42,067 bases of DNA from Myxococcales bacterium (lineage in GTDB: Bacteria; Myxococcota_A; Polyangia; Haliangiales; Haliangiaceae): contig JAEUJY010000022.1 of NCBI GenBank assembly GCA_016794525.1, forward strand, positions 1 through 42,067, written 5' to 3'. Below, one piece after another: positions 33,496 through 40,562 of the stretch (position 1 is the stretch's first letter; the number at the start of each line of letters is the position of its first letter). The notes beneath the pieces were generated by a model, which did no database searches, was not told where the DNA came from, and saw only the letters and a program-made list of their open reading frames with translations. The position numbers and the translations under genes are program-made.

Positions 33496-36462
33496 TCACG
33501 GACAGGGCGTCGCGTTGGCGACGCAGACGTCGCCGCAGGCGCGCGTGCCGGTCGGGCAGCAGTAGCCGTTCGAGCACGCCTGGCCGCCGCCGCAGGTCAC
33601 GCCGCACGCGCCGCAGTTGGTGTTGCTGGTGGCGGTGTTGACGCACGTCCCGCCGCACTCCACCTGCCCTGCCGTGCAGGCCAGCGAGCAGCACCGGAAC
33701 CCGGCGTTGGCGAACGCGTAGCTGGTCGGCACGACGGTCAGGTCGAAGTCGCAGGTCATGCCGCTGGCGTAGTTGTCGAACGACCCGCCGCGCAGCGTGT
33801 GGACCGTCTGGCCCGCCACGACGCGCGGGTCGTTGACCCACTCCTTGAGGTTGCCGGACATGTCGTTGGCCGAGTCTTGCGAGACGCAGCCCGCGAGCGC
33901 GCCGGTCGCGACCGCCTGATCCTCGTTGACCCCGCCGGCCACCGGGTCGTAGTCGCTGCCGTTGCAGGTCGAGGCGACGTAGCTGTTGCCGTAGGGGTAG
34001 ATGCGGTTGGCCGCGCCCTCGCAGAAGCGACCCCACTCGTCGCTGGTCACGACGCCGGCGCCGTTGCGCGTCACCCGGCACAGCCGCATGCCGGCCGCCG
34101 CGCACGCCGCCTGGACGGTGGCGAAGTTCGCCGTCGCCCACGGCACGCGGTTGGCGACCGAGCACGCGCGGCTGCCGACGATGCCCGGGCCGACGCCGGT
34201 GGCGTCGGGCCGGCTGGCCTCGTAGCGGTACATCACGACGCTCGCGCCGTTGACCGTCAGCGGGCCGACCGTCACGTCGCGCACGCCGGTGAAGCCGCCC
34301 GAGTCGTAGGGCTCGTCGGTGTGGCCGTCGCAGTCGTCGTCGCGGTTGTTGCAGGTCTCGCTGACCGCGGTCGCGCCCGCCGTCGTGACGTTGCAGCGCA
34401 GGCCGTTCTGCGCGGCGTTGCACACCAGCGCGCCGGTGCCGCGGCAGACGCCGAGCCGGCGGGTCGTGCCGAAGGTGCCGTCCTCGCCGCAGGCGGTGCC
34501 CTTGAGCGGGTAGACCTCGTCGGCGCCGCCGTCGCAGTCGTTGTCCTTGCCGTCGCAGCGCGACTCCTCGAGCACCGGATCGCCGTTGGGCTGCCGCTCG
34601 ACGTCGGGGTCGGTGTAGACGCAGTCCCAGCCGGTGGCGCCGGTGCAGGTCGGCGTCGTGCCGACGCACTCGCCGGCGGTCTTGCAGAAGTTGGCCGGGC
34701 GGATCAGCGTCGGGTCGGCGTTGTCGACGAGCCCGTCGCAGTCGTTGTCGACGCCGTCGCACACCTCCTGGCCGGAGAACGTGCAGGCGTACTCGCAGCC
34801 GTTGGCGGCGATGCCGTCGAGGTTGACGAACCCGCCCAGGCAGCCGGCGACGGTGCACGCCCCGCCGCTGCAGCCGGCGACCGCGTGCGGCAGGTTGCAG
34901 CCGGCGCAGTTGGCGCAGTAGCGCGGGTCGTTGAGCTTGTCGAAGCCGTTGTCGACGGCGCCGTTGCAGTCGTCGTCGAGGTTGTTGCAGGTCTCGGCGG
35001 CCGCGCCGACGTCGCCGACGCAGTCGATCGCGCCGAACGCGCAGGTGGTGGTGCCGGCGGTGCACTCGCCGGTGTTGGTGCCGCAGGTGGCGCCGCCGCC
35101 GGGGTTGCCGTCGTCGATCAGCCCGTCGCAGTCGTTGTCGACGCCGTCGCAGGCCTCGACGCCCCCGTTGGTGCGGACGCAGCCGTACTCGCAGCCGTCG
35201 GCGGGGTTGCCGTTGATGTCGTAGAAGTTGGGGTTGCACGCGCCCATCACGCAGGTCGACGCGGCGCACAGCGCGCCGGCGTTGGCGAACCCGCAGGTGT
35301 GGCCGCAGGTGCCGCAGTTGGCGGGATCGGTGGCGGTGTTGAAGCCCTCGTCGACGGTGCCGTTGCAGTTGTTGTCGGTCTGGTCGCAGCGCTCGGTGCC
35401 GGTGTTGATGCAGCCGTACTCGCAGCCGTCGGCGGCGGTGCCGTTGAGGTTGACGAACCCGAAGTCGCACGACGCGACGGTGCAGGCGCCGAGCGCGCAG
35501 CCCTCGACCGCGTGCGGCAGGTTGCACGGCGAGCAGCCGCCGCAGTGCAGCGGATCGTTCTGCTTGTCGTAGCCGTCGTCGATCGCGCCGTCGCAGTCGT
35601 CGTCGAGGTTGTTGCAGGTCTCGGCGCCGCCGCTGGTGGCGCCGACGCAGAACAGGACGCCGTTCTGGCACTGGGTCATGCCGGCCATGCACACGCCGGT
35701 GTCGGTGCCGCAGCTGGCGCCGCCGCCGGGGTTGCCGTCGTCGACCGCGCCGTCGCAGTCGTTGTCGACGCCGTCGCAGGTCTCGACGCCGCCGCCGGTG
35801 GGCGTGCACTGGTACTCGCAGCCCGGGACCGCGGCGTCGACGTCGACGAAGCCGGGGTCGCACATCGCGACCTCGCACACGCCGGCCTGGCAGTCGGCGC
35901 TGGCGTGCAAGAGGTTGCAGACGTTGCCGCAGCGGCCGCAGTTGTTCTCGTCGGTGGCGAGGTTGAAGTCCTCGTCCATCCGGGTATCGCAGTCGTTGTC
36001 GCGGTCGTCGCACACCTCGACGCCGGCGTTGGTCGGGATGCAGAAGTACTCGCAGCCGGCCATCGTCGCGTCGGTGTCGTTCCAGCCCGGCTGGCACGCG
36101 CCGGGGGTGCAGGTGCCCATGTCGCAGGTGCCGAACGCGTGCGGGTACGTGCACTGCCGGCCGCACATCCCGCAGTTGTTGGGGTCGGCCTGCAGGTTGA
36201 AGCCGTTGTCGACGACCGTGTCGCAGTCGTCGTCGGCGTTGTTGCACACCTCGGCGCGCGGCACGCAGGTCGTGCCGTCGATCGGCGCGTCGATGCCGCC
36301 GCCGTCGTCGCCGCCGGTGCCGTCGATGCCGCCGCCGGCGTCGCCGGCGTCGTGGCCGGCGTCGCGGTTGCCGCCGCCGCCGAGGTTGTACGGGTTGACG
36401 TCGCAGCCGGCCAGCGCGAGCGCGGCCAGCACCGCCACCGCCGATGCCCAGGCGCGGATCAC
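33496..36462 (-). CDS. Lipoprotein with multiple Myxococcus-type cysteine-rich repeats (C-x-DDDCDG-x-DEGF cores) and a C-terminal FGE-sulfatase (formylglycine-generating-enzyme-like) domain
   Basis: GTG start at 36460-36462 overlaps the upstream stop (GTGA) and is preceded by GGGAGG. Lipobox LAALALAGC. Six to seven ~80-aa Cys-rich modules: ETCNNLDDDCDGAIDDGYD..., CDGVDNDCDG... C-terminus matches FGE motifs (RLCRVTRNGAGVVTSDEWGRF, YPYGN, GNLKEWVND, LRGGSF, AGFRCCS). Ends with a Cys/Gly-rich tail. Confidence 0.8.
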   Translation of the reverse strand: MIRAWASAVAVLAALALAGCDVNPYNLGGGGNRDAGHDAGDAGGGIDGTGGDDGGGIDAPIDGTTCVPRAEVCNNADDDCDTVVDNGFNLQADPNNCGMCGRQCTYPHAFGTCDMGTCTPGACQPGWNDTDATMAGCEYFCIPTNAGVEVCDDRDNDCDTRMDEDFNLATDENNCGRCGNVCNLLHASADCQAGVCEVAMCDPGFVDVDAAVPGCEYQCTPTGGGVETCDGVDNDCDGAVDDGNPGGGASCGTDTGVCMAGMTQCQNGVLFCVGATSGGAETCNNLDDDCDGAIDDGYDKQNDPLHCGGCSPCNLPHAVEGCALGACTVASCDFGFVNLNGTAADGCEYGCINTGTERCDQTDNNCNGTVDEGFNTATDPANCGTCGHTCGFANAGALCAASTCVMGACNPNFYDINGNPADGCEYGCVRTNGGVEACDGVDNDCDGLIDDGNPGGGATCGTNTGECTAGTTTCAFGAIDCVGDVGAAAETCNNLDDDCNGAVDNGFDKLNDPRYCANCAGCNLPHAVAGCSGGACTVAGCLGGFVNLDGIAANGCEYACTFSGQEVCDGVDNDCDGLVDNADPTLIRPANFCKTAGECVGTTPTCTGATGWDCVYTDPDVERQPNGDPVLEESRCDGKDNDCDGGADEVYPLKGTACGEDGTFGTTRRLGVCRGTGALVCNAAQNGLRCNVTTAGATAVSETCNNRDDDCDGHTDEPYDSGGFTGVRDVTVGPLTVNGASVVMYRYEASRPDATGVGPGIVGSRACSVANRVPWATANFATVQAACAAAGMRLCRVTRNGAGVVTSDEWGRFCEGAANRIYPYGNSYVASTCNGSDYDPVAGGVNEDQAVATGALAGCVSQDSANDMSGNLKEWVNDPRVVAGQTVHTLRGGSFDNYASGMTCDFDLTVVPTSYAFANAGFRCCSLACTAGQVECGGTCVNTATSNTNCGACGVTCGGGQACSNGYCCPTGTRACGDVCVANATPCP
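34768..36260 (-). repeat. Intragenic tandem DNA repeats (~624-bp super-repeat, at least 2 full copies plus flanking partial modules) encoding the Cys-rich modules of the lipoprotein gene
   Basis: The protein shows a ~208-aa super-repeat (modules A-B-C) at residues ~149-356 and ~357-565, flanked by further A/B-type modules. Coordinates are approximate. Confidence 0.5.

Positions 36463-40562: not shown

Follow-up and report, generated by a model that had tools for sequence, protein, structure and literature searches.

Why does the gene for a very large, cysteine-rich myxobacterial protein run with its stop codon into the start of a lipoprotein gene, and what might the two products do together? 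The locus that raises this question lies on a contig of 42,067 nt from a Myxococcales bacterium (JAEUJY010000022.1, assembly GCA_016794525.1), which was analysed over its full length and is called the window below. Gene 1 (36459–40562, minus strand) encodes a 1367-residue predicted surface protein with a von Willebrand factor A (VWA) head, a stalk of MopE-type repeats and a MYXO-CTERM sorting tail; gene 2 (33496–36462, minus strand) encodes a 988-residue lipoprotein. New here are the polymorphism of a cassette in the head, the conserved coupling of the two genes through a Shine–Dalgarno (SD) sequence placed within the tail codons, and fusions of both genes into one polyprotein. We consider it fairly probable that the two products make up an integrin-like adhesin or receptor of two subunits at the cell surface, an analogue of TraA/TraB and CglB/CglD of Myxococcus xanthus.

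Evidence for exchange of the gene 1 head between strains

Thirty loci were obtained by scanning species-representative genomes and metagenomes, most of them in metagenome-assembled genomes (MAGs) of Kofleriaceae/Myxococcales. A first-pass annotation, made from the letters of the window, had read the taxon from the tail of gene 1, and both the relatives and the window itself, a Myxococcales MAG contig, bear this out. When the window was aligned with one of these loci, L013, amino acid identity was 98.5% for the PilZ protein encoded next to gene 1, 98% for phosphoglycerate kinase (PGK) and 95–96% for the stalk, compared with 71% for the N-terminal domain. Nucleotide identity was 56–84%, with indels, over positions 40520–39482, compared with 93–99% in most flanking windows, and was back to 95–99% at position 39481. 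The variation falls into two regions of the head. Variable region 1 (residues ~41–140; 40143–40442, minus strand), an insert directly after the DxSxS loop of the MIDAS (metal-ion-dependent adhesion site), had 35–65% identity to L013, compared with 96% for the backbone. Variable region 2 (residues ~181–360; 39483–40022, minus strand), an insert between strands βB and βC that carries indels, had 40–75% identity in most 20-residue windows, with gaps and a better-kept stretch at residues ~321–340. A conserved core (residues 141–180; helix α1 and strand β2) separates both variable regions, and from Gly356-Gly-Thr358 on the two proteins were identical for ~100 residues and 96% identical overall.

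Taking residues 50–355 as the head, the window and L013 had 60% identity in the head and 97% in the backbone (62–63% and 96–97% respectively with a wider head window). The corresponding values were 61% and 98% for the window with P0288, 72% and 92% for the window with L023, and 58% and 99% for L028 with P0289. L013 and L028 have a common head class (91–92%), and the head nearest to that of the window was found in L022 (84%), on a more distant backbone (81%). The alignments indicate at least three head classes on 92–99% identical backbones, with at least two independent exchanges. Between head classes, the non-synonymous rate (dN) was 17-fold and the synonymous rate (dS) 3-fold above those of the rest of the gene, with a dN/dS of ~1.0, and within a head class dN/dS was ~0.24. 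These rates fit allele classes that are old, maintained and shuffled by recombination better than they fit relaxed constraint. Gene 2 showed no comparable variable block.

Assembly chimeras are an unlikely source of the head mosaics, because several independent assemblies carry each combination. Neither the window nor the ±10 kb around the orthologues contained a silent second copy of the head, so the head variation is allelic between strains. A diversity-generating retroelement and intragenomic cassette switching were also considered and rejected, given the indels, the lack of a reverse-transcriptase domain among the scanned open reading frames (ORFs) and the lack of a silent copy.

TraA/TraB, which act in outer-membrane exchange of M. 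xanthus, share with the present pair a type I signal sequence, a polymorphic N-terminal head, a stalk of Cys-rich repeats and a MYXO-CTERM tail (PMC3820747, PMC11980579), as well as variation limited to the head, chimeric-looking alleles and an adjacent partner gene without specificity (PMC3820747). The two systems differ in that gene 1 has a VWA/MIDAS head with Cys-rich inserts, whereas the head of TraA is PA14-like (no PA14 match was obtained with Pfam), and in that the gene 1 stalk is MopE-type (PF11617) with no sequence homology. Moreover, the partner here is a stalked lipoprotein with the fold of formylglycine-generating enzyme (FGE), whereas TraB has an OmpA domain, and the taxon is Kofleriaceae rather than Cystobacterineae. 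We regard the likeness to TraA as analogy, not membership.

A narrower version of our reading would make the pair a homotypic kin-recognition receptor and functional analogue of TraA/TraB, in which VWA heads bind identical heads on neighbouring cells and gate contact-dependent behaviour, with the lipoprotein acting in a TraB-like manner. This version draws on the TraA-like layout (signal sequence, polymorphic head, Cys-rich tandem repeats and MYXO-CTERM; PMC3820747), on the chimeric alleles with discrete head classes on near-identical backbones, on purifying selection within classes with dN/dS ~1 between them, and on the invariance of the partner gene, as reported for traB (PMC3820747). We nevertheless consider it unlikely. 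The head is VWA, not PA14, the partner has no OmpA domain, and neither protein is homologous to TraA or TraB; the sample covers only ~3–5 head classes; phage or predator pressure would be equally expected to make exposed loops polymorphic; and MIDAS heads normally bind heterologous acidic ligands, not themselves.

Fold of the head and its metal site

The head (residues 27–488; 39099–40484, minus strand) comprises a Rossmann-type VWA core, which makes up ~180 of its ~460 residues, and ~270 residues of Cys-rich inserts. An AlphaFold2 model of residues 1–488, built on 14 homologues, had a predicted local distance difference test (pLDDT) score of 77.9 and a predicted template modelling (pTM) score of 0.75. 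In the model, insert 1 follows directly after the DxSxS loop (residues ~43–150) and insert 2 lies between strands B and C (residues ~180–330). Every top Foldseek match of the model was a VWA domain, integrin I domains among them, and its neighbours include the VWA/MIDAS substrate adhesins Mfa5, SpaC, RrgA and LapA. The relative P0175, which matches the C-terminal half of the head (E = 2.4e-33), passes the Pfam VWA model PF00092 there. A VWA fold is thus clearly predicted for the head. In profile scans, the full gene 1 protein had no VWA match above cut-off in Pfam or NCBIfam, the head matched no NCBIfam model, and a sub-sequence scan with VWA_2 gave 15.2 bits (E = 0.034; cut-off 27) over residues 328–394 only. 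Full-length matches to VWA and also to MYXO-CTERM are missing because filters and compositional bias hide them; both were recovered by sub-sequence scans, and VWA additionally by fold.

Asp38, Ser40, Ser42, Thr358 and Asp393 are all present, giving a predicted MIDAS of the pattern DxSxS...T...D, with loop 1 (D38-S-S40-G-S42) at 40437–40451, Thr358 at 39489–39491 and Asp393 at 39384–39386 (all minus strand). The site is kept in the Kofleriaceae orthologues aligned in full, except for a GATP in L021. The earlier claim of a VWA domain with a complete MIDAS therefore stands as regards the residues and the predicted fold, and fails only at the Pfam VWA cut-off, which gene 1 did not reach. The family alignment also marks a segment at 40107–40175 (minus strand), in which TRGDG (residues 130–134; 40161–40175) is followed by CDLNGDGLANDS (residues 141–152). 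Arg131, Gly132, Asp133 and Gly134 are invariant family-wide, including the stand-alone Acidobacteriota homologues, and TRGDG together with CDLNGDGLANDS is kept with little or no change throughout the family. CDLNGDGLANDS may be a DxDxDG-type Ca2+ loop. As a separate observation, the RGD within TRGDG outranks the MIDAS residues in conservation across the head family.

The specificity-determining loop of the integrin β-I domain sits between strands B and C, and the model would place variable region 2 at an equivalent position. Integrin α/β resemble the present pair in the VWA head with MIDAS and a large B–C insert at the position of this loop, in a Cys-rich stalk, in a C-terminal membrane anchor and in having two stalked subunits made together. 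They differ in that the second subunit here has an FGE/C-type-lectin fold, not a β-propeller, and in the chemistry of anchoring, and the comparison is one of analogy only.

Coupling and fusion of the two genes

The junction of the two genes, GGAGGTGCGGCGTGA (36459–36473, minus strand), consists of the SD sequence GGAGG (36469–36473), the GTG start of gene 2 (36460–36462) and the TGA stop of gene 1 (36459–36461). The TGA overlaps the GTG as GTGA at 36459–36462, as the first-pass annotation had noticed, and GGAGG lies 6 nt upstream of the GTG. The arrangement GGAGG-N6-GTGA, with small variations of spacer and codon, recurs in 15/15 complete unfused orthologues and therefore is not due to chance. 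Because the SD sequence sits inside the last tail codons (those for AGGAA), gene 2, through its ribosome-binding site, fixes the final residues of gene 1 (..GGAA).

In L024 (7602–15008, 2468 residues) and L035 (8013–12971, 1652 residues) the VWA and lipoprotein genes are fused in one in-frame ORF; the two are counted as independent events. In both, the SD sequence and the stop codon are lost in the DNA, and the MYXO-CTERM helix and RRRR directly precede the lipoprotein signal peptide and the lipobox Cys. As read from the sequence, the helix would cross the membrane out-to-in and the signal peptide after it in-to-out, a hairpin of consistent topology, and both myxosortase and signal peptidase II could cleave such a polyprotein. 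We take the fusions as a Rosetta-stone sign, suggesting that both products act together.

In a plainer account, gene 1 would encode an adhesin for a substrate or matrix, the sole reason for head variation being evasion of phages, predators or antibody-like pressure, and the two proteins would be co-expressed without forming a complex. The fold neighbours Mfa5, SpaC, RrgA and LapA fit this account, as do CglB and CglD, which are reported to be VWA/MIDAS substratum adhesins of M. xanthus (PMC9946355; bioRxiv 10.1101/2023.10.19.562135). The variation is likewise confined to exposed inserts and includes indels, and ~500-residue proteins with MopE repeats and an FGE domain form a large family of stand-alone Myxococcota paralogues, so a partner of this type can act alone. 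The strict SD–GTGA coupling and the two in-frame fusions, however, favour stoichiometric co-assembly, and we judge the account without a complex to be quite improbable. If the polymorphism did reflect phage pressure only, the module would be an ordinary, though large, surface adhesin.

The partner lipoprotein

The N-terminus of gene 2, MIRAWASAVAVLAALALAGC, is a lipobox, LALAGC, with the Cys at residue 20. It is followed by a Gly/Asp-rich linker, 10 MopE-type repeats (residues 73–716), an FGE-type C-type-lectin-like domain (residues ~730–925) and, at the C-terminal end, a Cys-rich MXAN_6577/Stig1-like tail; the protein has 99 Cys (10%). The C-terminal domain, a SUMF2-like head of FGE fold encoded at 33688–34275 (minus strand), scores just under the Pfam cut-off for FGE-sulfatase (PF03781). 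Its best solved relative by sequence is SUMF2, a non-catalytic FGE paralogue (E = 3.8e-4), and SUMF2 is also the closest of its fold matches, which include EgtB, OvoA and PvdO. In catalytic FGE, a copper-binding Cys pair CxxxxC follows RGGS[FW]. The gene 2 head has RGGSF, and the segment LRGGSFDNYASGMTCDFDL has a single Cys, a different spacing and no CxxxxC copper pair. A non-catalytic FGE/C-type-lectin fold is the best reading of this sequence.

The ~500-residue Myxococcota homologues mentioned above resemble gene 2 in their MopE repeats and PF03781 domain, have 38–56% identity to its C-terminal 300 residues and are named 'SUMF1/EgtB/PvdO family nonheme iron enzyme' by NCBI. Gene 2 differs from them in being twice as long, in having 10 repeats and in being always coupled to a VWA gene. 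The NCBI name of these homologues would fit the alternative that the two proteins are an enzyme–substrate pair, in which the FGE partner would modify the gene 1 product or other surface proteins, or that the MopE repeats sequester copper. The FGE family indeed includes oxidases that depend on copper and sulfoxide synthases that depend on iron, the fold matches include EgtB, OvoA and PvdO, and the Pfam name of the repeat is 'Cu-binding_MopE'. This alternative is nevertheless very unlikely: gene 1 has no FGE target motif of the form CxPxR or (C/S)x(P/A)xR, gene 2 has no CxxxxC pair after RGGSF and, by Pfam, no DinB domain of the EgtB/OvoA kind, the best match by both sequence and fold is the non-catalytic SUMF2, and no solved structure is related to the stalk by sequence.

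Signal peptide, stalk and sorting tail of gene 1

The Sec signal peptide read by the first-pass annotation was found at residues 1–26 (MRRR...AQAHA; 40485–40562, minus strand), with the cut between AHA and QPVK, and the motif AQPVK(N/P)RISV at its end is conserved across all orthologues. Gene 1 has 130 Cys in total (9.5%). Part 1 of the stalk (residues 489–1085; 37308–39098, minus strand) has 12 MopE-type CxxxDDDCDG repeats and 66 Cys. With the Pfam model Cu-binding_MopE (PF11617; cut-off 27 bits), gene 1 scored 127.8 bits and gene 2 110.4 bits. The regular expression CxxxD(D/E/N)(D/N)C(D/N) counted exactly 12 units in gene 1, where more than 12 had been claimed, and likewise 12 in every complete orthologue. 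Part 2 (residues 1086–1320; 36603–37307, minus strand) is a Cys-rich region with 39 Cys, which had been described as EGF-like modules. The Cys richness is there and the EGF assignment is tentative: part 2 gave only a sub-threshold match to FOLN (E = 0.064) and none in NCBIfam. Neither the MopE stalk nor part 2 had a relative among solved structures.

The sorting tail (residues 1321–1367; 36462–36602, minus strand; TIGR03382, TIGR03901.2) consists of VTAAGGGC with Cys1331, a Gly-rich stretch, a hydrophobic helix (AIGLALVGL) and RRRRPRR. This layout agrees with the tripartite definition of MYXO-CTERM, in which the C-terminal tail has a Gly/Cys signature with an invariant Cys, then a transmembrane helix, and ends rich in Arg (PMC11980579). 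In M. xanthus, the CPBP protease MrtX cuts such proteins in a reaction that depends on the Cys, and they are sorted to the cell surface (PMC11980579). VTAAGGGC is conserved among the orthologues, and every complete orthologue has a VTAAGGGC...RRRR tail. When scanned alone, the tail of the window scored 19.3 bits with TIGR03382 (cut-off 15.85); the full-length protein matched no MYXO-CTERM model. The claimed MYXO-CTERM tail is thus upheld by TIGR03382 and by its layout, with a reservation as to TIGR03901.2 that is given below. This 42-kb contig carries no CPBP protease gene.

CglB and CglD, which act in gliding of M. xanthus, are described as Cys-rich surface proteins whose VWA domain has a functional MIDAS; CglD moreover has modules that bind Ca2+, along with EGF-like repeats, in a stalk rich in Cys (PMC9946355; bioRxiv 10.1101/2023.10.19.562135). 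In these descriptions, which form the basis of the comparison, both are lipoprotein-anchored and tied to the Glt machinery, unlike gene 1 with its MYXO-CTERM tail, where only the partner is a lipoprotein, and neither head polymorphism nor coupling to a lectin-like partner is described for them. There are no Glt/Agl genes near the present module.

Conservation of the locus

The order PilZ/VWA/lipoprotein/gap/pgk is kept in 16/16 locus records that reach far enough (~12 distinct loci). Only the fused L035 departs from this order, with no match to PilZ and a contig that ends before gap-pgk. Since this order is kept wherever a locus reaches far enough, the module belongs to the core genome of Kofleriaceae-type myxobacteria and is not an island. 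The first-pass proposal of a two-gene surface module is borne out by this co-conservation of the pair together with the conserved SD–GTGA coupling and the two in-frame fusions.

A word-indexed search with the head gave 25 proteins. When 1.84 billion representatives were searched exhaustively with a profile, ~10–15 clusters matched the whole head, and many more matched only the C-terminal (VWA) half of the head or the RGD/α1-β2 segment. The distant members of the head family, from Acidobacteriota and others, are stand-alone proteins of 500–600 residues without PilZ, lipoprotein partner or MYXO-CTERM.

A model of a two-subunit surface complex

In the model that we favour, the two genes, bicistronic and translationally coupled, would act as one module whose products assemble into a cell-surface complex of two subunits. 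The gene 1 product would be exported by Sec and then held in the inner membrane by its MYXO-CTERM helix; cleavage by a myxosortase at the invariant Gly/Cys box would follow, probably accompanied by lipidation, and a type II secretion route would move the product to the outer surface. This combination of MYXO-CTERM, myxosortase and type II secretion is the route of TraA in Myxococcus. On the surface, gene 1 would display its integrin-I-domain-like VWA head distally on a long stalk, a disulphide-rich, Asp-rich rod that is probably stabilised by Ca2+. The MIDAS metal ion would bind an acidic group of a ligand, and the two Cys-rich inserts by the MIDAS face would set or shield specificity and be swapped between strains as a cassette. 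Ribosomes terminating on gene 1 would start gene 2 through GGAGG-N6-GTGA, and the gene 2 lipoprotein would serve as the invariant partner subunit, either as co-receptor or as scaffold.

Several observations weigh against this model. Coupling and fusion would also fit mere co-expression, and the pairing of the two proteins is deduced from the gene arrangement. All relatives are MAGs or metagenome contigs. In L006 (10001–11215) the gene breaks off at residue ~384, and this is the only locus without the partner gene; low-GC DNA and then unrelated genes lie downstream of the break, and L006 is probably an assembly chimera or an insertion, not a counter-example to co-conservation. The tail of the window, scanned alone, scored 19.2 bits with TIGR03901.2, which is 0.8 bit under the cut-off of 20, and carries six further residues after RRRRPRR; the cut-off is reached by six of nine orthologous tails (20.0–33.1 bits). 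Surface exposure and myxosortase dependence of the gene 1 product are extrapolated from M. xanthus. As to the head, its model has pLDDT values of 62–79 over most insert residues and ~52 near residues 291–300, and the placement of the variable residues around the MIDAS is predicted from this medium-confidence model. Finally, Ser42, Thr358 and Asp393 are not conserved in the distant stand-alone homologues, so metal-dependent binding is not family-wide.

To our knowledge, MYXO-CTERM proteins number dozens per myxobacterial genome, and TraA is the only one with worked-out biology. If the two-subunit model is right, the module would be a second polymorphic MYXO-CTERM receptor, with a VWA/MIDAS head, in an uncultured wastewater and soil myxobacterial family. 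A bacterial two-chain architecture of integrin-like type would bear on the evolution of adhesion receptors in multicellular bacteria. The natural head alleles on isogenic backbones could be used to test how specificity is encoded around a MIDAS, and the SD-in-tail coupling with the back-to-back MYXO-CTERM helix and lipoprotein signal peptide would be useful for studies of processing by myxosortase and signal peptidase II. More speculatively, and with a low probability in our estimate, the module might be a second self/non-self system, of Kofleriaceae type, non-homologous to TraA but convergent with its design. In this two-subunit, integrin-like receptor, MIDAS heads with exchangeable cassettes, placed where integrins have their specificity-determining loop, would define recognition groups and be matched 1:1, by way of translational coupling, with an invariant lectin-fold lipoprotein (or, in some lineages, be joined to it as a polyprotein that myxosortase and signal peptidase II cleave). 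Interest in the locus would rise if the head classes proved to define recognition groups.

Reading frame, upstream region and the PilZ gene

The NCBI record of the gene 1 product (MBL8620551.1) is labelled 'hypothetical protein'. The frame of gene 1 is the sole one with a coding-type GC content at third codon positions (GC3, ~0.98–1.0), on a contig with 72–75% GC. Long ORFs on the opposite strand (e.g. 33799–37173 and 36444–40712, plus strand) were rejected as high-GC artefacts with the wrong GC3 pattern. A GGAG precedes the ATG of gene 1 and is kept in the orthologues in the upstream alignment. The same alignment (18 loci) revealed a conserved -10-like element, CGTCTACCATCGTCGC (40624–40639, minus strand), whose TAC(A/C)AT core recurs in most orthologues ~65–75 nt upstream of the VWA ATG. 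It probably serves the module as a promoter of its own, apart from PilZ. A consensus promoter scan gave no match there, so the promoter reading draws on conservation; promoter and terminator scans are uninformative in DNA of 72–75% GC. With Rfam at the gathering threshold, the whole window had zero matches to riboswitches or other RNA elements.

The single-domain PilZ gene (40687–41136, minus strand; ~130–149 residues; Pfam PilZ E = 6.9e-14) has several start candidates, GTG at 41136 or 41130, TTG at 41115 and GTG at 41076, and carries the c-di-GMP (cyclic di-GMP)-binding motifs RxxxR (RAFPR) and NxSxxG (NLSRGG). It lies directly upstream on the same strand in all Kofleriaceae-type loci recovered, with the exception of L035, which is fused and more distant. 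The first-pass annotation had taken the PilZ gene as a hint of motility and had suggested a PilY1-like pilus role for gene 1. The synteny of PilZ held, and its value as a pilus marker did not, PilZ being a c-di-GMP receptor domain. The tie between PilZ and the VWA gene is further weakened because the latter seems to have its own -10-like element, and any role of PilZ in the module would be an indirect deduction from gene order.

A type IV pilus tip adhesin or mechanosensor of the PilY1 kind, tied to the upstream PilZ, would resemble gene 1 in being a large exported protein with a VWA domain at its N-terminus, and the invariant RGD by the DxNxDG loop recalls the RGD/Ca2+ site of Pseudomonas aeruginosa PilY1 (PMC3248442). 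PilZ is syntenic as well. However, the full gene 1 protein gave only MopE repeats in Pfam and has no C-terminal β-propeller domain of PilY1/PilC, and it ends in a membrane-sorting tail of its own instead. Furthermore, pilY1 genes typically neighbour pilX/W/V/fimU (PMC13190605), whereas no pilin or minor-pilin gene was found among the ORFs of the window or the called genes of the syntenic loci L004–L006, and PilZ is not a pilus component here. We consider a pilus role extremely improbable.

Other genes of the window

Outside the module, an ORF of 743 residues at 42–2270 (plus strand) lies in DNA of 81% GC, had no Pfam match and is open on both strands, and its gene call is uncertain. A 197-residue protein encoded at 11750–12340 (minus strand) matches the C-terminal domain of Tdi1, an immunity protein of the type VI secretion system (E = 1.7e-8), with no genes of that system seen nearby. 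Two PAS-rich hybrid histidine kinases of 1009 and 1717 residues, with multiple PAS domains each, are encoded in tandem at 19294–22320 and 22531–27681 (plus strand). Downstream of gap-pgk, at 27694–30543 (minus strand), lies a gene for a 950-residue fusion of a GGDEF diguanylate cyclase with a Ser/Thr kinase, and L004 has a kinase gene at the same place. Finally, the gene at 8742–11477 (minus strand) encodes a 912-residue bacterial homologue of the major vault protein of eukaryotes, with matches to MVP_shoulder (E = 4.5e-20) and Vault_3 (E = 2.3e-11).

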